Part shown: piece after piece, positions 403 to 13,587 of the stretch
Numbering within the stretch: the first letter of the stretch is position 1
Layout of the letters: each line of letters begins with the position of its first letter
IMG/VR virus record: IMGVR_UViG_2778261245_000001
Span: 1-38,365 of that record
Reading direction: 5' to 3' (one strand)
Source: a virus
Taxonomy: Duplodnaviria; Heunggongvirae; Uroviricota; Caudoviricetes
DNA: 38,365 bases
Translations under genes and position numbers: made by a program
The notes under the pieces: model-generated
What the model was told of the DNA's origin: nothing
Databases searched by the model: none
What the model saw: only the letters and a program-made list of their open reading frames with translations

Positions 403-1533
403 TCATATTGTTAAAGTTACCCAATTTTTTCCGCGGAGATCGTTATAACGATCAGTTTGTTGCTGGGTTTTATGTCCCAGCAATTTCTGAGTATCTATTC
501 CCTGTTCTTTGTATAGCCTTTCTGACAATGAACGTTGCTCATGAAAGGTTGCTGGGGTTCCTTCACCCCAATCAATTTCAGCCAGATCCCTTGCTTTGCT
601 AAAATTCATAGTCAGAGTATTAGCTTTTACTTGTGCCCCACGTTCTGCCTGTGAAGTTGATCTGAAAAAATGTACTAAGTATGGACTATCTACATAGTCA
701 CGGCAGCGAGCTACAACATCGCGCAGGCTCCAGTTGATTACATTCAAACGAAGAGAAAGAGGAATGGCTATTTTGCTGCCGGTTTTTTCCTGTTCGATAT
801 GCAGATGATCATCCCAGATATCGCTGAATTTCATTTTGGATATATCTCCCAAACGTTGGCCAGTAACCAGCGCTAACAGCATGGCATTTCCCATGTAACG
901 ATGAGTGGAGTCTGCGATATCAAAAATTTTTTGCCATTCTTCCAGGCTGAGGCGTTGACGGGTGATTTTCCTTCTGGGTTGCTTCGTCGCAAGAGCAGGG
1001 TTATACCCTGGTGGAACTTCGCCATAATGCTGTGCTTCCTTAAACACATCGATTAATACAGACCTTACGACTTGGGCCATTCTAGGCTGTCCAGCTGTAA
1101 TATACTCATCAAGCAATTGTGCTATATCTCTGACATCAACGGATGAGATCAACTTCATTCCTGCTCGTTCTCTGAGCAAGGATACTGGTTTGGCTTTTTG
1201 CTTATAGGTATTGAGTCTTATATCACCACTTTTGAGCCTATCATCCTGGATCGCTTGATAGCGATCTAACCAGGTTGACGTTGTGATCGCTTTTCCTTTG
1301 CAGGTTGCGATCCTGTCACTGATAGCCAGAATCTGTCGGGTTCTTTGTTCAGCCAGGCGTGTATTGGCTTCAGTGGCAATAGCGATGGCTTCAGCTTCGT
1401 TAGTTCCCAACGCATGAAATTTCCCTGTTACTGGATGCTTATACCGCCAATAGACTTTATTTACCTTCCTACTATAAAGCGGATATAAGTTAGGTACTGA
1501 AACATTATTCTTACGCGGTCTGGCTGCCATCAC
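403..1533 (-). CDS. int: Lambda-family tyrosine integrase
   Basis: 376 aa; C-terminal catalytic region ending FHEQRSLSERLY...LLGHK...YNDLRG closely parallels the lambda Int C-terminus (FHELRSLSARLY...LLGHK...YRDDRG); followed by excisionase as in lambda. Confidence 0.9.
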   Translation of the reverse strand: MMAARPRKNNVSVPNLYPLYSRKVNKVYWRYKHPVTGKFHALGTNEAEAIAIATEANTRLAEQRTRQILAISDRIATCKGKAITTSTWLDRYQAIQDDRLKSGDIRLNTYKQKAKPVSLLRERAGMKLISSVDVRDIAQLLDEYITAGQPRMAQVVRSVLIDVFKEAQHYGEVPPGYNPALATKQPRRKITRQRLSLEEWQKIFDIADSTHRYMGNAMLLALVTGQRLGDISKMKFSDIWDDHLHIEQEKTGSKIAIPLSLRLNVINWSLRDVVARCRDYVDSPYLVHFFRSTSQAERGAQVKANTLTMNFSKARDLAEIDWGEGTPATFHEQRSLSERLYKEQGIDTQKLLGHKTQQQTDRYNDLRGKNWVTLTI

Positions 1534-3096: not shown

Positions 3097-3771
3097 TTAG
3101 GCTTTGATTTTGTATCTTCTTGGTTTTCCTGAGAAAATCACAGTACCAATTATAGAGCAATTACCGTTGATCTTAATGTAAGGCTCAGGCCAGTTTGGGT
3201 TTAACGCTTTGAGATAACGCTGTGTCCCATCTTCTATCAACCTTTTGAAGGTGGTTTCACCTGTATCGTGCATCAATGCAATAACGTCGTCACCGTGGCA
3301 GGCAGGTACTTCAGGATCGACAAAAATCATGTCTCCCGGGCGGTACTCATCAATCATTGAATCACCTATCACCCGCAAGATATAAGTCATTTCCCCACAG
3401 GGTACAGGGCAGGGATACGTTTCTGCTGTGCTCAAATCAACCTCAGAATATCCAACTTCTTTCCATGCTCCGGCCTGTACCCATGATATGACAGGGACTA
3501 ATGTGATTTGTTTATTAGTGATTGAAACATCAGGTTTTTTTGTGATGTTCGTTGTCTGGTGTTCTTGATCGAGCCATCCGACAGGCAGGTCGAAACATTT
3601 TTCGATGTGTCGTGCCATGCTGTCACCGATATTTTTAGTAGCACCATCTCCCATAAACCTGCTGGTTTGGGTTGGCTCGCGATCAATCATAGTGGCAAAG
3701 GAAGAATTCCCGCCAACACCATCTCTCAGTTTTCTGGCGTTAGACCGCCGGATGTCATGGATTGTTTTCAT
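3097..3771 (-). CDS. CI-type prophage repressor (N-terminal HTH plus C-terminal S24 LexA-like peptidase domain)
   Basis: 224 aa; C-terminal ...YILRVIGDSMIDEYRPGDMIFVDP... is the S24 autocleavage domain signature; divergent from a cro-like gene; same length as e14 CohE. Confidence 0.9.
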   Translation of the reverse strand: MKTIHDIRRSNARKLRDGVGGNSSFATMIDREPTQTSRFMGDGATKNIGDSMARHIEKCFDLPVGWLDQEHQTTNITKKPDVSITNKQITLVPVISWVQAGAWKEVGYSEVDLSTAETYPCPVPCGEMTYILRVIGDSMIDEYRPGDMIFVDPEVPACHGDDVIALMHDTGETTFKRLIEDGTQRYLKALNPNWPEPYIKINGNCSIIGTVIFSGKPRRYKIKA

Positions 3772-4093: not shown

Positions 4094-4663
4094 ATGAGGC
4101 TAATCGTGGGTAAGCATCACTGGAAAATAGAAAAACAGCCTGAGTGGTACATGAAAGCTGTCAGAAAAACTATCGCGGCGTTGCCGGGTGGTTACGCTGA
4201 AGCCGCTGACTGGCTGGATGTAACAGAGAACGCTTTATTCAACCGCCTTCGTGCAGATGGCGATCAGATTTTTCCGCTGGGATGGGCAATGGTTTTACAG
4301 CGTGCTGGTGGCACTCACTTCATTGCTGATGCTGTGGCGCAGTCTGCAAATGGCGTATTTGTGTCTCTTCCTGACGTCGAGGATGTGGACAACGCCGATA
4401 TTAACCAGCGTCTGCTGGAAGTCATTGAACAGATCGGCAGTTATTCAAAACAGATTCGTTCAGCAATCGAAGACGGTGTAGTGGAACCGCATGAGAAGAC
4501 AGCAATTAACGACGAGCTGTATCTCTCAATTTCGAAGCTGCAGGAGCATGCAGCACTGGTCTACAAAATCTTTTGCATTTCAGAAAGTAATGACGCCCGC
4601 GAGTGTGCAGCTCCGGGCGTCGTGGCGTCGATTGCTTCTGGTTGTGGAGAAACTAACGCATGA
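4094..4663 (+). CDS. YdaT/YmfL-like early regulatory protein (CII-position gene)
   Basis: 189 aa ORF directly downstream of cro; size and position match e14 ymfL and Rac ydaT; start may be the internal ATG at 4151. Confidence 0.5.
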
Positions 4664-5007: not shown

Positions 5008-5949
5008 ATGAGCACTAAATTAACCGGCTATGTATGGGATGGTTGCGCTGCGTCAGGCATGAAATTATCCAGCGTGGCAATTATGGCCCGCCTGGCTGAT
5101 TTCAGTAATGACGAAGGTGTGTGCTGGCCATCAATTGAAACCATTGCCCGTCAGATTGGCGCGGGGATGAGTACCGTCAGAACGGCTATCGCACGGCTGG
5201 AAGCAGAAGGCTGGTTAACGCGTAAGGCGCGTCGCCAGGGTAACCGCAATGCGTCGAATGTTTATCAGCTTAACGTTGCGAAGCTTCAGGCAGCGGCATT
5301 TTCTCAACTGTCAGATTCTGACCCGTCAAAATCTGACGCATCAAAATCTGACCCGTCAAAATTTGATGCGTCGAAATCTGGCAAAAAAGCGGGTTTTCAC
5401 CCGTCAGAATCTGGCGGGGATCCGTCAGTAAAATCAAAACATGATCCGTCAGATAAAAAACCTTCTCGTCCGGACGCTTCGCAACCGGACACGCAGACGG
5501 CTGAACAGGATTTTTTAACTCGCCATCCTGATGCGGTTGTATTCAGCCCTAAAAAGCGCCAGTGGGGGACGCAGGATGATTTGACCTGCGCACAGTGGCT
5601 CTGGAAAAAAATCATCGCCCTGTACGAGCAGGCTGCCGAATGTGACGGCGAGGTGGTTCGTCCCAAAGAACCGAACTGGACAGCCTGGGCAAACGAAATT
5701 CGCCTGATGTGTGTACAGGATGGGCGTACTCACAAACAAATCTGCGAGATGTACAGCCGCGTCAGCCGCGATCCGTTCTGGTGCCGTAACGTGCTCAGCC
5801 CGTCGAAGCTGCGGGAAAAATGGGATGAGCTTTCCCTGCGCTTATCGCCGTCCGTCAGCACGTACACCGAAAAACGCGAGGACCCGTACTTCAAAGCCAG
5901 TTACGACAACGTGGACTACAGCCAGATCCCGGCAGGATTCAGAGGGTGA
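5008..5949 (+). CDS. Phage replication initiator (lambda O-like: N-terminal HTH, internal iteron-encoded repeat region, C-terminal domain)
   Basis: 313 aa; N-terminal winged-helix-like segment; central low-complexity DPSKSD repeats encoded by DNA iterons; position after cro/cII-like genes. Confidence 0.7.
   Translation: MSTKLTGYVWDGCAASGMKLSSVAIMARLADFSNDEGVCWPSIETIARQIGAGMSTVRTAIARLEAEGWLTRKARRQGNRNASNVYQLNVAKLQAAAFSQLSDSDPSKSDASKSDPSKFDASKSGKKAGFHPSESGGDPSVKSKHDPSDKKPSRPDASQPDTQTAEQDFLTRHPDAVVFSPKKRQWGTQDDLTCAQWLWKKIIALYEQAAECDGEVVRPKEPNWTAWANEIRLMCVQDGRTHKQICEMYSRVSRDPFWCRNVLSPSKLREKWDELSLRLSPSVSTYTEKREDPYFKASYDNVDYSQIPAGFRG
5311..5455. repeat. Iteron array (candidate replication origin) inside the replication-initiator gene
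   Basis: At least 7 tandem copies of a 12-15 bp unit resembling CCGTCA(A/G)AATCTGA, e.g. gacccgtcaaaatctgacgcatcaaaatctgacccgtcaaaatttgatgcgtcgaaatctgg. Confidence 0.55.
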
Positions 5950-6440
5950 TCATGAGTCTGTTAAATGACGTTCAGAAATTCATTGAAGCCCATCCGGGGT
6001 GTACTTCCGGAGACATTGCGGATGCTTTTGCAGGTTACTCACGGCAGCGCGTTCTGCAGTCTGCAAGCAAGTTACGTCAGAGTGGGCGTGTGGCTCACCG
6101 TTGTGAAGGAGATACACGCAGACATTTCCCGCGCCTGACTGAGAGAGCGCAGGAACCGGAACCACAACCAGTTCGAGAAACCAGACCTGTGCGCAATTTC
6201 TATGTCGGCACTAACGATCCACGGGTGATTTTGTGCCTGACCCGCCAGGCTGAAGAACTGGAGTCCAGGGGCTTATACCGTCGTGCTGCAACCGTGTGGA
6301 TGGCGGCATTCCGTGAAAGCCACTCCCAGCCAGAACGAAACAATTTTCTGGCGCGTCGTGAGCTGTGTTTACGTAAAAGCAGCAAGCGCGCTGTATCGAG
6401 TGATGAGTGGTATCTGTCAGGGAATTACGTGGGGGCGTAA
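5946..6440 (+). CDS. Hypothetical protein with C-terminal PerC/Pch-like regulator motif
   Basis: 164 aa; C-terminal LESRGLYRRAATVW...ARRELC resembles the PerC/Pch family signature (recalled, not searched); N-terminal part looks winged-helix-like. Confidence 0.4.
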   Translation: MIMSLLNDVQKFIEAHPGCTSGDIADAFAGYSRQRVLQSASKLRQSGRVAHRCEGDTRRHFPRLTERAQEPEPQPVRETRPVRNFYVGTNDPRVILCLTRQAEELESRGLYRRAATVWMAAFRESHSQPERNNFLARRELCLRKSSKRAVSSDEWYLSGNYVGA

Positions 6441-6766
6441 TGACGACGTTAACTCAATGCCAGCAGCAGGTGCTGGATATGCTGATTTCTTATCAGAAAG
6501 AGCGTGGCTTTCCGCCAACCAATCAGGAGGTGGCAACCATGCTGGGATACCGTTCAGTGAATGCAGCGGTAGAGCATCTTCGCGCACTGGAGAAAAAAGG
6601 CGTCATCACGATAAAGCGTGGCGTGGCCCGGGGGATAACGCTTCATACCGCGGTGAAGGACGACGACAGCGAGGCGGTCGGGATTATCCGCGCACTGCTT
6701 GCCGGTGAGGAAAACGCAAGGCTGCGTGCAACCCACTGGTTACATGAGAGGGGCCTGAAAGTATGA
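6440..6766 (+). CDS. LexA N-terminal DNA-binding-domain-like protein lacking the S24 peptidase domain
   Basis: 108 aa from ATG 6440 (TAATG overlap with upstream gene); residues TLTQCQQQVLDMLISYQKERGFPPTNQEVATMLGYRSVNAAVEHLRALEKKGVITI align closely with the LexA N-terminal winged HTH; no Ser/Lys peptidase region. Confidence 0.65.
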   Translation: MTTLTQCQQQVLDMLISYQKERGFPPTNQEVATMLGYRSVNAAVEHLRALEKKGVITIKRGVARGITLHTAVKDDDSEAVGIIRALLAGEENARLRATHWLHERGLKV

Positions 6767-7152
6767 AGCTGATCCTGCCTTTTCCGCCCAGCGTGAACAC
6801 GTACTGGCGACACCCCAACAAAGGGGCGTTTGCTGGTAAGAGCCTGATAAGCGCGGCGGGGCGAAAATTCCAGAGCGCAGCGTGCGCAGCAATAGTTGAG
6901 CAGTTACGTCGTCTGCCGAAACCAACGTCGGCACCTGCTTCAGTGGAGATCGTGTTGTTTCCTCCGGATAACCGGATCCGCGATCTGGACAACTATAACA
7001 AGGCGCTGTTTGACGCCCTGACCCACGCGGGTGTGTGGGAAGACGACAGCCAAGTGAAAAGAATGTTGGTGGAGTGGGGACCGGTTATCCCGGAAGGGAA
7101 GGTCGAGATCACTATCAGTAAGTACGAGAAACCGGCGGGTGCAGCCGCCTGA
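6763..7152 (+). CDS. rusA: RusA-family Holliday junction resolvase
   Basis: 129 aa; motifs PPSVNTYWRH and RDLDNYNKALFDALTHAGVWEDDSQV match RusA ([36 protein letters not shown]). Confidence 0.85.
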   Translation: MKLILPFPPSVNTYWRHPNKGAFAGKSLISAAGRKFQSAACAAIVEQLRRLPKPTSAPASVEIVLFPPDNRIRDLDNYNKALFDALTHAGVWEDDSQVKRMLVEWGPVIPEGKVEITISKYEKPAGAAA

Positions 7153-7171
7153 TTAAGAGGAGAAACGAAGT

Positions 7172-7969
7172 ATGAATAATCTGATGGTCATTGATGGTAT
7201 TGAAGTTCGTCGTGATGCTTATGGGCGTTACAGCCTGAACGATCTGCACAGGGCTGCCGGTTCTCTGGATAAGCATAAGCCTGCATTCTGGCTCCGCAAT
7301 GAGCAAACTGAACGTTTAATAAGCGAGTTGCAGATTTGCAACTCGGTCAATATAGAGCCAGTTAACGTTATTCGTGGCGGAAATAACCAGGGGACGTATG
7401 TCTGCAAAGAACTGGTGTATGCCTATGCAATGTGGATCAGCCCGTCATTCCATCTGAAGGTGATCCGTACTTTCGATATGGTAACCAGCGCACCGGAAAA
7501 ATTATCCGGACAGGCTGCTGACAAGATGCAGGCTGGTGTGATTCTGCTGGACTTTATGCGCCGGGAATTAAACCTGTCTAACTCTTCAGTGCTTGGTGCC
7601 TGTCAGAAACTCCAGGAGGCTGTTGGCTTACCGAATCTGGCACCGCGCTATGCCATTGATGCTCCTGCTGATGCACTCGATGGCTCAAGCCGCCCTACGC
7701 TATCATTGAGTGCACTGCTGAAGCAGTATGGTATCCGCCTTACGGCTAATCAGGCATATCACCAGATGGTGAAGCTGGGGATCGTCGAACAGCGCGAACG
7801 ATACAGCCGTACCGCGATTAACAACATCAAAAAATTCTGGTCGCTGACAGCGAAAGGCTGCATGTTCGGCAAGAACATCACCAGTCCCGCAAATCCGCGC
7901 GAGACGCAGCCGCACTTTTTCGAATCCCGATTCCCTGAGCTGTTAAAGCTGCTCGATACCGTTCATTGA
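7172..7969 (+). CDS. KilA-N/Bro-N-type DNA-binding domain protein (putative antirepressor-like)
   Basis: 265 aa; N-terminal region has the character of a KilA-N/Bro-N domain, recognised from memory only; common early-region phage gene. Confidence 0.45.
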   Translation: MNNLMVIDGIEVRRDAYGRYSLNDLHRAAGSLDKHKPAFWLRNEQTERLISELQICNSVNIEPVNVIRGGNNQGTYVCKELVYAYAMWISPSFHLKVIRTFDMVTSAPEKLSGQAADKMQAGVILLDFMRRELNLSNSSVLGACQKLQEAVGLPNLAPRYAIDAPADALDGSSRPTLSLSALLKQYGIRLTANQAYHQMVKLGIVEQRERYSRTAINNIKKFWSLTAKGCMFGKNITSPANPRETQPHFFESRFPELLKLLDTVH

Positions 7970-7976
7970 GGTTACC

Positions 7977-8965
7977 GTGAGAGCACTACTGACCCCTGAA
8001 ATTGCCCCGCGTATGGGGATCGTATTGTTCAGACCAGGTTCAGAGCTGATGCCCCTGTTTATGCAGGGGCGTGTCCTGCTGGAGCCTGAGCCGGAGCATT
8101 ATTCATCTTTCGCCAGTGGTGCCGTTCCCGCGGCATCACAACCGCTGGCGGATGATCCTGCCGTTCGGGCCGTGTTCCGTAATGAGGCAGTGATTCGTCG
8201 TGCTGGTGGGGTGGAATGTCTTGAAAGCTGGTTACTTCGTGAAAAAGGCTGCCAGTGGCCTCATTCCGACTGGCACAGCGAGAACATGACCACAATGCGA
8301 CACGCGCCGGGCGCAATCCGTCTGTGCTGGCACTGTGATAACCAGCTGCGCGATCAGTTCACGGAACGGCTGGAATCAATGGCAACGGATAACTGTGCCC
8401 GGTGGGTGTTATCTGTCGTGCGTCGGGATCTCGGTTTTAATGATAGTCACGTTGTGACAATGCCGGAACTGTGCTGGTGGCTGGTTCGTAATGACCTGGC
8501 GGATGCCTTACCGGAAAGTGCAGCCCGTAAGGCACTGAGATTACCGAAGCCTGTTGTGCCGTCTGTCACCCGGGAAAGTGACCTTGTGCCTTCGGTTCCT
8601 GCCCCAGCATCATCCAGGATAAAGCGAAAAAGGTGCTGGCGCTGAAAGTGGATCCGGAGTCGCCGGAGTCTTTTATGTTACGCCCCAAACGTCGCCGCTG
8701 GGTTAATGAAAAGTACACGCGCTGGGTTAAGACGCAGCCGTGCGCATGTTGTGGAAAGCCTGCTGATGATGCCCACCACCTGATAGGTCACGGTCAGGGT
8801 GGAATGGGTACAAAAGCGCATGACCTTTTTGTGTTGCCTTTGTGCAGAAAGCATCACGACGAGCTGCATGCGGATACCGTGGTATTTGAAGAGAAGTATG
8901 GCTCCCAGTTGGAGCTGATATTTCGTTTTATTGATCGTGCGCTGGCAATTGGCGTGCTGGCCTGA
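7977..8965 (+). pseudogene. DUF968/YdfU-like gene split by a frameshift into two ORFs (7977-8645 and 8633-8965)
   Basis: Two adjacent ORFs in different frames (222 + 110 aa) whose sum matches a roughly 330-aa DUF968 protein; the second carries a Cys/His zinc-binding-like motif CACCGKPADDAHH...PLCRKHHDELH; junction lies at an A5 run near 8604-8608. Confidence 0.5.
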
Positions 8966-8979
8966 TTTGGTGGAGAAAG

Positions 8980-9330
8980 TTGATGCGTGATATGTATGAA
9001 GTATTGGACCGCTGGGGAGCATGGGCTGCAGCAGAAAATAGTGGTGTGGACTGGCAGCCGATAGCGGCTGGTTTCAAGGGACTTTTACCACACGGTAAAA
9101 AGTCACGTCTCCAGTGTGATGATGATGAAGGCATCATGATAGATAGTTGTGTGGCTAGGTTGCGTAAATATAAGCCGGAAGAGTATGAGCTGATAATTGC
9201 TCACTTTGTTATCGGTATCTCATTACGCACTATTGCGAAGAAGAGAAAATGCTCTGATGGGACTATAAGAAAAAAGTTGCAAGCTGCATTGGGATTTATT
9301 GATGCAGTTATATATATAATACATGGGTAA
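8980..9330 (+). CDS. Late-gene antiterminator Q
   Basis: 116 aa; LDRWGAWAAAENSGVDWQPIAAGFKGL...KSRLQCDDDEGIMIDSCVARL matches the Q-family pattern of lambdoid prophages. Confidence 0.8.
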   Translation: MMRDMYEVLDRWGAWAAAENSGVDWQPIAAGFKGLLPHGKKSRLQCDDDEGIMIDSCVARLRKYKPEEYELIIAHFVIGISLRTIAKKRKCSDGTIRKKLQAALGFIDAVIYIIHG

Positions 9331-9337
9331 TTTATTA

Positions 9338-9356
9338 GACGGCCATATTGGCCGTC
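9338..9356. terminator. Bidirectional hairpin terminator between Q and the convergent cassette
   Basis: Perfect hairpin GACGGCCA-TAT-TGGCCGTC with AT-rich flanks on both sides; overlaps the stop codon of the 9355-10542 gene. Confidence 0.55.
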
Positions 9357-10542
9357 AGCTAAATAAATATGTAATAGCATAAGGCGTAAGTAAAAAGTAG
9401 AATCTAAATGTAAGATATAAGCCACATAAAACTATAATTCCTAATGAGGCAAAAACAACTTTCTGAACAAGCAATCTTGTGGTTAAACTATCAAATGTAT
9501 CCTTTATATCTTCGTAAATAGCCTTGAAGTTATATTCTGCTTGTTGTTTTTTATGATTTAACTCATCATTTATTGCTGTTAAAGTTTGCCATTGATTAAA
9601 TAGAACAAATAGAATCATAATAGTGAAGAACAATGCACCCAACACTACAGCTGTGTTTATTAATGCTTGACTATCCCAACCATTAGCCTGCTTCATTTGA
9701 GTCGCAACGATAATTGTTGCGACGGGGATACCTAATATCTGATTTTGTATGTCACTGAATACTTTATGTATTTTCCCCATCTCTTCTATTTTGGCTACTC
9801 GTAACTGATCCAGTATTTTCTCGTAAGAAAAACCAGAAACGAATACTTTGTATCCTTTTTGATAACTTTCATAAAGTTGTCCTAAATCCCTTAACATGAA
9901 GGAAAAAGAGGTTTCTTTAGTTTTAGATTCACATGATGATTTTATACTACTTGCTAAAATAGTAAGTTTTTGATCTTTATGCGTATCTTCTGCAAAGTTT
10001 GCGATCAAATTATGAATCAGATCTCCATTAACATTCATAAGATCATCGCTAGAATAATTTACTGGAATTTTTAGTACGTTGGATTCGACGAATACCAATT
10101 CAAAATTTGTTTCATCTAAATAAGCAGAACAATCTTTGAATAAAGTAATTAAGCTCAAAACATCTCTGTACTTGGATATAATAGCAGGCGACTTTTTATC
10201 CCTGTTGTGATAATTAAGTTCGATTATAAAGAAGTTACTGGCTTCCTTTATCCTATTTTTAGGATTTTTTAAATACTCATTAAAAGAGAAATGTAGCTGC
10301 CCCAATCGTAATTTGGGGGGGGTTATATGTAAGGTTATAGTTTGGCCTAACTCAATGTTGCCAGATTCAAGGGTGATGCCAAAATCATGGGGATTCTCTG
10401 TGATATCGTTGATGATGTCACAGAGCTCCTCGTTTGAAAGAATGAGTGATGCTTCAGATAGGGTACCTGCAAATGTAGCGGCCTTGTAAATAGTCACTAA
10501 GTCTTTGAAGGTTCTCTGATTGTTACTGCTCATCCTCTTCAC
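9355..10542 (-). CDS. Hypothetical protein with large N-terminal soluble domain and C-terminal two-helix transmembrane hairpin (cassette gene B)
   Basis: 395 aa, AT-rich codon usage; hydrophobic segments ALINTAVVLGALFFTIMILFVLF and VVFASLGIIVLCGLYLTFRFYFLL near the C-terminus; start overlaps upstream gene stop (GAGGATGAG); ATG at 10533 is an alternative start. Confidence 0.6.
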   Translation of the reverse strand: MKRMSSNNQRTFKDLVTIYKAATFAGTLSEASLILSNEELCDIINDITENPHDFGITLESGNIELGQTITLHITPPKLRLGQLHFSFNEYLKNPKNRIKEASNFFIIELNYHNRDKKSPAIISKYRDVLSLITLFKDCSAYLDETNFELVFVESNVLKIPVNYSSDDLMNVNGDLIHNLIANFAEDTHKDQKLTILASSIKSSCESKTKETSFSFMLRDLGQLYESYQKGYKVFVSGFSYEKILDQLRVAKIEEMGKIHKVFSDIQNQILGIPVATIIVATQMKQANGWDSQALINTAVVLGALFFTIMILFVLFNQWQTLTAINDELNHKKQQAEYNFKAIYEDIKDTFDSLTTRLLVQKVVFASLGIIVLCGLYLTFRFYFLLTPYAITYLFS

Positions 10543-11557
10543 CTAATTCTGATAAAATCTCTGATCTTAGCGTATCCGGAATCTCGGTAAGTATCAATTT
10601 ATCGTTTTCTGAATCATAAAGAACGCTGCCATCATGCAAGGCCGCACGCTCGAATTTCAGAGACCAATGTTTGGACTTTCCTTTGAAACTAACAAGCCCA
10701 CGTATAACGTTGCCATCAGGCACGAACCCATCAGAGAACTCCAGATCGTCATTGGTTAACTTTTCAACTAACAACTCAGGAGCAGTTGGCCATATCTCGT
10801 TTGCAAAAATTTGAGTGTCGAAAGTTTCACCAGAACGATTTAAATTTTTTAATTTTTCATGAGCCTTATTTAGGAACTCTTCACGTGCCTCTGGTTCAAA
10901 ACCTCTTTCAGTAGCAAATTCTAAAAGTGCATTCCGTAATTTTGTTGTTTCTTGTTTGGCAATTAGAATATCGTTGCAACCTAAAAACTTTTTGAAATAA
11001 CCTGCTACTGAATTTTGCCCCTTTAGAAAGCTAATATATCTCTCTTTGCCATTCTGGCGCCCAGTTAAGTCAATTCGTCCCGCTACTCGAAGTTTAGCAA
11101 TGTCTAGATATTCACTTTCTTGAATTTCAAAATCGTGGACTGAAGAGCCAACTGCTGATGTTAGGATTGCAACCATCAAATAATGATTTCCATTTACCTC
11201 ATTATGGGCAATTATTACATAACCACCAGTAGACATTGATTCATCATCGGCTCTGGCTTTTAAATGATTGATCATTCGGATACTAGTATCATAAAAACTA
11301 TGTGTTTTATTTACGAAATAATCATCAACGATATTACCCATAGGGTAACTATCGCGGTCATCTTCAAATTTCCCATATCCTTTACCTGCTCTCCCAGAGT
11401 ACCTTTCAGTAAGTGCGTTAGAGAGGTCTTTTGATGCTTGCTGAACAGGTTTTTCTGAAGGACAAGGAATAATGGTGGCTAACCCCTGTTGTTCCTTGTT
11501 CATAATGTGAACAATAAACTTATGAGTGATATTAGTGGGGGTCGCTGATGCAGTCAT
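10523..11557 (-). CDS. YejK/NdpA-family nucleoid-associated protein homolog (cassette gene A)
   Basis: 344 aa; similarity to E. coli YejK along the whole length as recalled: N-terminal ITHKFIVHIMNKEQQ (YejK INQIALHQLIKRDEQ), central YLDIAKLRVAGRIDLT...RYISFLKG...FLG (YejK YLDINHADIVARIDLT...RYLTFLKG...FLG), C-terminal KLILTEIPDTLRSEI (YejK TLTIKGTPPNLRDQL); AAGGA RBS upstream. Confidence 0.65.
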   Translation of the reverse strand: MTASATPTNITHKFIVHIMNKEQQGLATIIPCPSEKPVQQASKDLSNALTERYSGRAGKGYGKFEDDRDSYPMGNIVDDYFVNKTHSFYDTSIRMINHLKARADDESMSTGGYVIIAHNEVNGNHYLMVAILTSAVGSSVHDFEIQESEYLDIAKLRVAGRIDLTGRQNGKERYISFLKGQNSVAGYFKKFLGCNDILIAKQETTKLRNALLEFATERGFEPEAREEFLNKAHEKLKNLNRSGETFDTQIFANEIWPTAPELLVEKLTNDDLEFSDGFVPDGNVIRGLVSFKGKSKHWSLKFERAALHDGSVLYDSENDKLILTEIPDTLRSEILSELGEEDEQ

Positions 11558-11700: not shown

Positions 11701-11847
11701 TTTCTGGGCTTTGGTATTCGTTGGGCTTGGTCTATCTAGCTCTTATCCATTGGCTCGGCTTCTTTTACGTTTCCGCTTCTGATTTGCGGTTCGTGGTACT
11801 CCCTCAATTTGCACCTCTTGTATCGGCGAGGTGAGAGATAACTACAA

Positions 11848-12174
11848 ATGCCTCATAACCCAAATACTTGGCTGGAGTTGGTCCAGAGCTGGTGGCGTGG
11901 AGACACACCGCTGGGCGCAGTGATTATGTCGATTGTTATGGCTGGTTTGCGCATTGCCTATTTTGGCGGTGGTGGTGGCTGGAAGCGAAAAACACTCGAA
12001 ATTCTACTCTGTGGCGCTCTGACGCTGACTTTTGCATCCGCTCTTGAGTATGTCGGATGGCCTAAATCGCTTTCTGTTGCCATTGGTGGTGGGGTGGGGC
12101 TGATCGGTGTCGATGCTATTCGTGGGGCTGCAATGAGAGTAATCGGTAATAAGTTTGGTGGCTCTAAGGAGTAA
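11848..12174 (+). CDS. S: Holin (lambda S-like class I)
   Basis: 108 aa; multiple hydrophobic segments and charged C-terminus; pattern parallels lambda S; immediately precedes endolysin. Confidence 0.8.
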   Translation: MPHNPNTWLELVQSWWRGDTPLGAVIMSIVMAGLRIAYFGGGGGWKRKTLEILLCGALTLTFASALEYVGWPKSLSVAIGGGVGLIGVDAIRGAAMRVIGNKFGGSKE

Positions 12175-12177
12175 TTT

Positions 12178-12654
12178 ATGCAGGTACTAAATTCCCAGCG
12201 TAAAGCTTTCCTCGATATGGTGGCATGGTCAGAAGGAACGGATAACGGGCGACAACCGACACGTAACCACGGTTATGATGTTATTGTTGGTGGTGAACTG
12301 TTCACTGATTACTCCGATCACCCTCGCAAACTTGTCACGCTAAACCCAAAACTCAAATCAACAGCCGCCGGACGTTACCAGCTTCTTTCCCGTTGGTGGG
12401 ATGCCTACCGTAAGCAGCTTGGCCTGAAAGACTTCTCTCCAAAAAGCCAGGACGCTGTGGCATTGCAGCAGATTAAGGAGCGTGGCGCTTTACCGATGAT
12501 TGATCGCGGTGATATTCGTCAGGCTATCGACCGTTGCAGCAATATCTGGGCTTCACTGCCGGGCGCTGGTTATGGCCAGTTCGAGCATAAGGCTGACAGC
12601 CTGATTGCAAAATTCAAAGAGGCTGGCGGAACGGTCAGAGAGATTGAGGTATGA
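12178..12654 (+). CDS. R: Endolysin, lytic transglycosylase (near-identical to lambda R as recalled)
   Basis: 158 aa; [148 protein letters not shown] matches lambda R almost residue for residue. Confidence 0.95.
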
Positions 12655-13088
12655 GCAGAGTCACCGCGATTATCTCCGCTCTGATTATCTGCATCATCGT
12701 CTGCCTGTCATGGGCTGTTAATCATTACCGTGATAACGCCATCGCCTACAAAGAGCAGCGCGATAAAGCCACATCCATCATCGCTGACATGCAGAAGCGT
12801 CAACGTGATGTAGCAGAACTCGACGCCAGATATACAAAGGAGCTTGCTGATGCTAACGCGACTATCGAAAGTCTCCGTGCTGATGTTTCTGCTGGGCGTA
12901 AGCGCCTGCAAGTCGCCGCCACCTGTGCAAAGTCAACGACCGGAGCCAGCAGCATGGGCGATGGAGAAAGCCCAGGACTTACAGCAGATGCTGAACTCAA
13001 TTATTACCGTCTCCGAAGTGGAATCGACAGGATAACCGCGCAGGTTAACTACCTGCAGGAATACATCAGGACGCAATGCCTTCGATGA
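12651..13088 (+). CDS. Rz: Inner-membrane spanin Rz
   Basis: 145 aa; N-terminus [31 protein letters not shown] matches lambda Rz; coiled-coil body. Confidence 0.9.
12844..13035 (+). CDS. Rz1: Outer-membrane lipoprotein spanin Rz1, embedded in the +1 frame of Rz
   Basis: 63 aa; signal peptide with lipobox-like LGVSAC followed by proline-rich segment, fully nested in Rz as in lambda. Confidence 0.8.
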
Positions 13089-13338
13089 TAGCGATAATTT
13101 TACTCATCATCCTTCACATCTGGCTCTGTAGACAGGGTGGTGCTTACTTCTGGAGCGAATCCAGATTAAACATCTCATTGCTGATGCTTGATATTGAGCA
13201 TCTGGCGCGCGGTAAGGGCTGTGTTGAGATAAGTGCCAGTTCATTACAAAGCTATATCTAATGGAACCTGAAATAATTTGTCATTGTCATGACAAGAAAA
13301 TTCATTAATGATGAGCTCTCATTATACGGGAGGTAGAT

Positions 13339-13587
13339 ATGGCATTTCGTTATTTTGAACTTACCGAAAATATTCCTTTTGAGGATGCAAGAGAGCTTCA
13401 CGTACAGTTCAAACACCACTTAGAATATGTTGTAAAGGCATTATTTATGTTAGGAACACATGAAAAGCATTTAATTGTTGAAGGCCGGGATGACGAATCG
13501 ATAACACAGATATTTGGTGGGCATGATGAAAAGTTTATGCATCTTTATCATATCGATGAATATGAAAAACGTGAAGACTTAATCTAA
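13339..13587 (+). CDS. Hypothetical small protein, 82 aa
   Basis: ORF with GGAGG-like RBS (gggaggtagatATG); preceded by a perfect 12-bp palindrome TTGTCATGACAA at about 13284-13295. Confidence 0.4.
   Translation: MAFRYFELTENIPFEDARELHVQFKHHLEYVVKALFMLGTHEKHLIVEGRDDESITQIFGGHDEKFMHLYHIDEYEKREDLI

Follow-up and report, generated by a model that had tools for sequence, protein, structure and literature searches.

A LexA-type winged helix with a conserved helical hairpin and no protease domain in a widespread family of enterobacterial prophage proteins

The viral contig IMGVR_UViG_2778261245_000001 of IMG/VR (38,365 nt, analysed over its whole length and called the window below) is a lambdoid-like prophage. 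Its early-right (PR-type) lytic operon includes a gene for a protein of 108 amino acids (aa) that combines a winged helix closely related to the N-terminal domain (NTD) of LexA, a short linker and a conserved helical hairpin, without the S24 peptidase domain of LexA. This LexA-NTD protein belongs to a family that is already annotated (PHROG 362; RefSeq), and a full-text literature search identified no paper characterising the enterobacterial family, although absence there is not absence from the literature. Its role is plausible but putative: we tentatively propose that it is a RecA-proof SOS-box binder which re-imposes LexA-type repression during lytic growth, a reading we consider possible, if short of probable.

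Protein architecture and DNA-reading residues

Features of the gene and its product are as follows.
6440..6766 including stop, plus strand: gene for the LexA-NTD-only protein, 108 aa (open reading frame (ORF); Pfam, PHROG, RefSeq)
6431..6442, plus strand: Shine-Dalgarno-like GGGGG (6431-6435) and TAATG junction (direct sequence reading)
6440..6646, plus strand: LexA-type winged helix-turn-helix (wHTH), residues 1-69 (AlphaFold2 (AF2) with multiple sequence alignment, predicted local distance difference test score (pLDDT) ~80-89; Foldseek)
6557..6595, plus strand: recognition helix α3, residues 40-52, VNAAVEHLRALEK (LexA alignment; literature contacts)
6647..6664, plus strand: low-confidence acidic linker TAVKDD, residues 70-75 (pLDDT <50 at 71-75)
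6665..6763, plus strand: family-specific helical hairpin, residues 76-108 (AF2 pLDDT ~88; family conservation)
6763..6766, plus strand: ATGA overlap of the rusA start with the LexA-NTD stop (ORF coordinates, sequence)

The ORF is intact, running from ATG at 6440 to TGA at 6764-6766 (108 codons plus stop). Its start codon shares the A of the TAA that ends the PerC-like ORF at 5946..6440, and the 4-nt ATGA-type overlap with rusA is also present in loci L001, L005, L011 and L019 of related prophages. Coordinates, length and ATGA coupling to rusA are all as given in the original prediction, which had been made from the letters alone.

Pfam LexA_DNA_bind (PF01726) matches residues 1-65 over its full 65-position profile (E 2.9e-19, 69 bits; cutoff 23.7 bits), and a sequence comparison with the PDB ranked the E. 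coli LexA NTD (1lea, E 6e-16) and full-length LexA highest. A Pfam search of the 108-aa protein gave no match to Peptidase_S24 (PF00717); the protein ends at residue 108, and the S24 peptidase/dimerisation domain with the Ser119-Lys156 dyad, the hallmark of LexA, is absent. Positions 1-91 of the 203-position NCBIfam lexA equivalog TIGR00498 could be aligned, reaching residue 91 of the protein, but with a score of 70.5 bits against a cutoff of 110.95 the protein is LexA-related rather than a LexA orthologue. As it has neither an S24 domain nor a conserved cleavage site, it should not be filed as LexA. PHROG 362 (“transcriptional repressor”) matches end to end (residues 1-108 against profile positions 1-106 of 106, E 1.2e-59), so the whole architecture is that of an established phage family, and the same coding sequence is listed in RefSeq as ‘LexA family transcriptional regulator’ (WP_000210156.1); the protein is a full member of this catalogued group. 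PADLOC gave only a marginal, meaningless match for it.

From the single sequence AF2 returned an unusable model (pLDDT 54), while a family alignment of 14 sequences gave a model with pLDDT 83. This has the elements of a winged helix (helices 6-22, 28-35 and 40-52; strands 56-58 and 66-68), which Foldseek superimposed on chain B of a LexA-DNA complex (3jso_B) with a root-mean-square deviation (rmsd) of 0.9 Å over 68 columns with 50% identity. The PF01726 match, 1lea and the fit to 3jso_B confirm what had been proposed for this gene, a prophage-borne LexA N-terminal winged helix lacking the S24 domain, and the insensitivity to RecA that had been deduced for it would be a consequence of the missing protease domain.

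The protein had also been described as stopping before the S24 domain. That is correct as far as the peptidase is concerned, but the winged helix is followed by a conserved helical hairpin of ~33 residues, beyond a linker whose length and sequence differ between family members. In the AF2 model the two helices cover residues ~76-88 and 93-103, and their motif (IIRALLxGExxARxRAxxWLxxxG) is common to distant members with 39-52% identity (P0123, P0126, P0127, P0131, P0139, P0165, P0172, P0213 and P0230). Residue frequencies were taken from 58 non-redundant (<90% identity) full-length members: A93 is found in 53/58, A97 in 55/58, and R94 and R96 each in 45/58, while position 100 is aromatic in 56/58, position 101 aliphatic in 56/58, and positions 86 and 87 hydrophobic in all 58. 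The many stand-alone viral LexA DNA-binding-domain (DBD) proteins in BFVD come from tectiviruses, mycobacteriophage Wildcat and uncultured Caudovirales, and those with low rmsd align only over ~65-76 columns of the winged helix, so the tail seems specific to the enterobacterial family; the LexA-DBD proteins of Firmicute phages have ~31-35% identity to the window protein, over the wHTH only. We propose that the hairpin is a dimerisation or partner-binding module that would replace the C-terminal domain of LexA.

HMMER aligned RALLAGE (residues 84-90) with RVAAGE of LexA (80-86), around the Ala84-Gly85 cleavage site. Retention of a LexA cleavage site here (LLAGE, 86-90, resembling VAAGE), which could serve as a trans-substrate or decoy, was considered and rejected, because A88 is kept in only 25/58 members and G89 in 29/58 (distant members have ERE, TRK, DDQ or ADT in place of AGE) and because the segment is predicted to be helical rather than an extended loop.

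E. coli LexA reads CTGT mainly via S39, N41, A42 and E45 (PMC11442139); contacts of Asn41 have also been described elsewhere (PMC5999292), and an older model adds E44 (PMC13416735). The window protein has the same S39 (just before α3), N41, A42 and E45, with valine in place of E44. Across the family S39 is found in 57/58 members, N41 in 56/58, A42 in 51/58 and E45 in 37/58, with Asp in a further 10/58; in the wing, R64 is retained in 56/58 and G65 in 57/58. Judged from these residues, SOS-box-type binding by the window protein is plausible. The pattern appears to favour recognition of a CTGT-type half-site and to leave room for altered affinity or specificity, as Glu44 is systematically lost and position 45 is variable.

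Genomic setting, SOS boxes and a sister subfamily

The neighbouring genes in the window are as follows.
403-1533, minus strand: integrase
3097-3771, minus strand: S24-type cI-like repressor (cleavable)
4094-4663: CII-like gene
5008-5949: O-like replication gene
5946..6440, plus strand: PerC-family regulator (yfdN-like), upstream in the same operon (Pfam PerC, E 1.1e-9; RefSeq)
6763..7152, plus strand: RusA Holliday-junction resolvase, downstream (Pfam RusA, E 6e-15; PHROG 34)
7172-7969: KilA-N gene
7977-8965: DUF968 gene
8980-9330: Q, followed by moron, lysis and morphogenesis genes

No promoter-like or terminator-like call was made just upstream of the LexA-NTD gene in the window. Lying inside the early-right operon without a promoter of its own, the gene should be silent in the lysogen, and its early lytic position suggests that the protein would appear as host LexA is being cleaved. 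For the lysogen this is a poor fit with the suggestion, part of the original prediction, that the protein holds a phage gene under a non-cleavable lock.

Of 5426 complete E. coli genomes, 2703 carry the gene region, most of them with ≥95% identity. Clusters comprising thousands of sequences preserve an uninterrupted ORF of 106-108 aa. Phages carrying it include mEp460, SfII, SfV (orf42), SfIV, cdtI and Stx2a- and Stx2c-converting phages, in which the product is annotated as “LexA DNA binding domain protein”, “LexA-like protein” or “transcriptional repressor”. An IMG/VR sample of 80 loci among the matches listed (protein 99-100% identical to that of the window) yielded an identical or near-identical 108-aa protein in all 80. 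Gene order is conserved as replication – [PerC] – [Dam] – LexA-NTD – RusA – [KilA-N/ANT] – DUF968 – Q, and holds even where the protein is only 42-51% identical (Cronobacter, Kosakonia, Enterobacter and others); these prophages have unrelated immunity and replication modules and keep LexA-NTD – RusA – DUF968 – Q. A contig profile scan with the family alignment returned mostly host lexA, with L012 and L019 as the only family members; L031 was rejected as a member, being host lexA adjoining plsB. A viral sequence scan with P0213 as query gave no matches.

Several genes around the LexA-NTD gene differ between the window and its relatives. In many of the latter (mEp460, SfII, Stx2 phages) a 654-bp dam-type methylase gene lies exactly between the PerC-like and LexA-NTD genes (L003 6892-7545; L002 5541-6194), with stop and start codons overlapping at either end; in the window, which has no such gene, the junction at 6438-6442 is a clean TAATG. 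The PerC motif occupies residues 100-154 of the PerC-like protein (yfdN-type, 164 aa), and the additional N-terminal segment has weak winged-helix matches (MarR-type PHROG, BilQ). The DUF968/HNH-like gene, a single gene of ~329 aa in L001 and L003, is split in the window into ORFs at 7977..8645 and 8633..8965 by a 1-bp deletion near 8604, which is either a sequencing error or a frameshift in a decaying prophage. Between Q and the holin gene the window carries a two-gene moron (9355-11557, minus strand), encoding a 394-aa protein without Pfam or PADLOC match and a nucleoid-associated protein of the NA37 (YejK-like) family (Pfam E 8e-69).

SOS boxes were sought as exact and one-mismatch CTGT-N8-ACAG and by scoring against a position weight matrix that represents 20 boxes of E. 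coli. SOS-like boxes within this prophage, for which the original prediction had proposed a scan, did not emerge above chance by any of the three: there is no exact CTGT-N8-ACAG in the 38,365 nt of the window, its 16 one-mismatch occurrences are at chance level (12.5±3.6 expected), and its best weight-matrix score (11.9 bits) is no higher than the average top score in shuffled sequence (12.0). Any SOS-box targets of the protein must therefore lie outside the window.

In the 80 IMG/VR loci, scanned within ±9 kb of the gene at a threshold of ≥16 bits, at least one box was found in 47. TACTGTAAAAATAAACAGTG is present in 25/80 loci at the 5′ end of a late-region DNA methyltransferase gene, between Q and the lysis genes (L001 13614-13633; L002 10787-10806; L010 10739-10758); the window carries a different moron at this position. 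TACTGTATTTATGAACAGTG (10/80 loci; L096 9765-9784) lies in the rusA–KilA-N intergenic region, ~100 bp upstream of KilA-N, suggesting that a LexA-controlled antirepressor-like gene adjoins the LexA-NTD–rusA pair in these loci; the KilA-N gene behind this box has a different N-terminal half. TACTGTTTTTACATACAGTA (17/80 loci) or TACTGTTTTTATATACAGTA (7/80 loci) is found 2.9-5.3 kb upstream of the LexA-NTD gene. Near-perfect boxes are located inside S24-type cI genes, ~165-230 bp from the cI start (L002 1736-1755, TACTGTTTTTACATACAGTA; L011 2836-2855), where the box could be part of an internal or antisense LexA-controlled promoter; the cI gene of the window has no such internal box.

A closer link with SOS control was found in a sister subfamily of 130-135 aa from prophages of Klebsiella, Raoultella and Enterobacter. 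In 28/34 viral loci a box of 17-29 bits lies 437-615 bp upstream of the sister gene: a terminator hairpin is followed by a sigma-70-like promoter (−35 elements TTGCAA in L008, TTGCAT in L010 and TTGCTC in L180) whose −10 is overlapped by the SOS box, and by a transcription unit with the order [dinI] – orfX – LexA-NTD – orf67 – [RusA] – DUF968 – Q. dinI is often part of this unit, and that of L180 matches Pfam DinI with E 1.7e-21. Sharing a LexA-repressed promoter with dinI connects the family to SOS control and makes autoregulation at the sister box an obvious hypothesis. The window lacks both orfX and dinI, and its LexA-NTD gene is not in such an operon.

The product of orfX (75-85 aa, GTG start, no Pfam match, 47-66% identity between loci) is a putative antirepressor acting on the non-S24 repressors that these prophages encode; those of L008 and L010 have no S24 domain. 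orfX always precedes the 130-135-aa LexA-NTD gene (regions 5387-6593 of L180, 7560-8608 of L008 and 7561-8357 of L010), and a conserved 67-aa ORF directly follows that gene in L180 and L008. In L008 an RNAse_A_bac toxin-like gene is inserted, together with a faint CdiI_2-like immunity gene, immediately before the SOS-box promoter (5863-7232, minus strand), and in L010 a segment between the late methylase and lysis genes (11794-13390, minus strand) encodes products matching the Cas_Cas1 and AcrVA2-like Pfam families.

Proposed role and alternative explanations

As a RecA-proof SOS-box binder, the protein would be made only after induction or infection, while host LexA is cleaved. The hairpin would dimerise it, and two winged helices would occupy a palindromic operator of the CTGT-N8-ACAG type. 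SOS-box promoters of the host chromosome, of co-resident mobile elements and, in related phages, of the phage itself would then be re-repressed or otherwise regulated, and this re-repression would persist while activated RecA (RecA*) is present. The isolated LexA NTD keeps some SOS-box binding and repression, and its removal by ClpXP is needed for SOS induction (PMC10584840). As the C-terminus of the phage protein is not the end generated by cleavage, it would probably escape the ClpXP route that clears the LexA N-terminal fragment.

Several observations weigh against this reading. DNA binding is predicted from fold and residues, and dimerisation by the hairpin from conservation and a monomer model (predicted template modelling score 0.56). 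The window has no SOS box, not even an autoregulatory one upstream of the LexA-NTD gene, and in 33/80 of the related loci none was found within ±9 kb, so that the gene is independent of an SOS box in cis. Boxes in the remaining relatives are sufficiently explained by host LexA alone and show only that targets exist. Glu44 of LexA is replaced in 57/58 family members (Glu in 1/58) and position 45 is non-acidic in 11/58, changes that may have altered specificity in some members. Between genera the LexA-NTD protein has 42-51% identity, compared with 70-77% for RusA and 63-68% for DUF968; such divergence would be unexpected in a protein that has to read an invariant host operator. Finally, the sole characterised phage LexA-NTD protein, gp6 of Bacillus phage GIL01, is an activator with a changed site.

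Alternatively, the LexA-derived winged helix may have drifted to a phage-specific operator and now activate or repress a phage promoter (e.g. late or moron) instead of mimicking LexA at SOS boxes; gp6, a truncated LexA homologue, acts on a phage promoter through a site different from the LexA box (PMC6182141). Evolution faster than that of neighbouring genes, systematic change at position 44 with variability at 45, and a prophage devoid of SOS boxes all fit a regulator of this kind. We nevertheless rate it as somewhat unlikely, given that S39, N41 and A42 are near-invariant and that all four reading residues of the window protein are those of E. coli LexA; moreover, the LexA-NTD gene stays the same in loci whose late-control modules (Q type and the stretch beyond Q) are different, and a conserved alternative palindrome, at which no search was aimed, was not identified.

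A broader version of the SOS-box reading, in which an induced prophage would re-silence the SOS regulon together with all LexA-gated elements (antirepressor-controlled rival prophages, colicins and SOS-induced functions), appears unlikely. Acting as a RecA-proof replacement for LexA, the protein would give the induced phage sole use of the host and, in dinI–orfX–LexA-NTD operons, would provide negative feedback on the SOS-controlled induction module.

Position next to rusA raises the improbable alternative of a DNA-binding accessory factor for recombination or replication, encoded in the nin region and working with the coupled RusA; lambda NinH occupies a comparable position next to Rap. The two genes are adjacent in the enterobacterial loci examined, usually with a 4-nt overlap (exceptions L004, L008 and L180), and a DNA methylase gene often directly precedes the LexA-NTD gene. 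On the other hand, RusA-family resolvases work without such a partner (e.g. rusA of E. coli DLP12), other genes intervene between LexA-NTD and RusA in L004 and L008, and in L180 the stretch from the LexA-NTD gene to DUF968 is devoid of rusA. The sequence-specific reading residues that have been kept argue rather for operator recognition.

It is very improbable that the protein modulates SOS at the protein level, with its tail or LLAGE segment engaging LexA, RecA* or another S24 protease as decoy or trans-substrate and DNA binding being secondary. The alignment of RALLAGE with RVAAGE, the extent of the TIGR00498 match to residue 91 and the presence of the sister subfamily in an operon with dinI, a RecA modulator, would agree with such a role; poor retention of A88 and G89 (with ERE, TRK, DDQ and ADT in distant members) and the predicted helix in place of an extended cleavable loop are contrary to it. 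A decaying, functionless remnant of a captured lexA, for which the frameshift in the downstream DUF968 gene could be cited as a sign of some prophage decay, is effectively refuted by the conservation pattern: an ORF intact in thousands of sequences, conservation across genera with structured invariant residues in both domains, and presence in viable phages (mEp460, SfII, SfV and Stx2 phages).

The interest of the family lies in its very high prevalence, which extends to Stx phages, in a sharply defined hypothesis and in the dinI–orfX–LexA-NTD operon of its relatives. If the protein does bind SOS boxes, an extremely common prophage gene could override the SOS response during prophage induction. 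Since carriers include Stx2-converting and Shigella serotype-converting phages, this would bear on the induction of Stx phages by SOS-triggering antibiotics, as well as on competition between co-resident prophages and SOS-dependent mutagenesis in lysogens.

Comparison with known systems

Host LexA (3JSO, 1LEA) has the same winged helix (50% identity, 0.9 Å) with the same S39, N41, A42 and E45. The window protein departs from it in having no S24 domain, a score below the equivalog cutoff, valine in place of Glu44 and a hairpin after the linker, and its gene has no autoregulatory SOS box upstream.

In the Gifsy prophages a LexA-controlled dinI–antirepressor–irsA operon follows a terminator, and its antirepressor gene is GUG-initiated (PMC3121763). 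The sister LexA-NTD gene (L180, L008 and L010) occupies the irsA slot of a similar layout, with terminator, SOS-box promoter, dinI, a small GTG ORF and the gene itself, then resolvase and Q, an arrangement not shared by the gene of the window. Identity of the family with Gifsy IrsA (STM1020) was rejected, as IrsA belongs to DUF1367 and does not resemble the LexA-NTD family, and orfX had no detectable similarity to the Gifsy antirepressor GftA.

RecA*-resistant repression of the LexA type, the outcome proposed here, is also reached in GIL01, where gp7 binds host LexA, enhances its operator binding and blocks RecA-mediated cleavage (PMC4551915). The mechanism differs, gp7 being a LexA-binding cofactor and not a DNA-binding homologue.

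Engineered fusions of LexA(1-87) to a dimeriser, such as the LexA-Jun zipper, which underlie bacterial two-hybrid systems, repress their operators tightly and are not relieved by RecA. Their layout, a LexA DBD with a small helical module, is that of the window protein, in which the tail is natural, a hairpin rather than a long zipper, and predicted to dimerise; if it does, the phage protein would be a natural counterpart of the engineered combination of LexA DBD and foreign dimeriser.

The closest phage parallel, compared here by its published description, is gp6 of GIL01, a Gram-positive tectivirus, which activates the late promoter P3 from GaCACAnnTGTGaC, a sequence distinct from the LexA box of the host (PMC6182141). 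Both proteins come from temperate phages, consist of a LexA DBD without cleavage domain and are expressed, in the window by prediction, from early operons after SOS induction. In gp6 there is a winged helix only, its last 14 residues being the wing, while the window protein adds the conserved tail of ~33 residues and keeps host-type reading residues. Relative to gp6, the enterobacterial protein is thus a phage LexA-NTD-only protein extended by a conserved helical module, with the DNA-reading residues of the host repressor retained.

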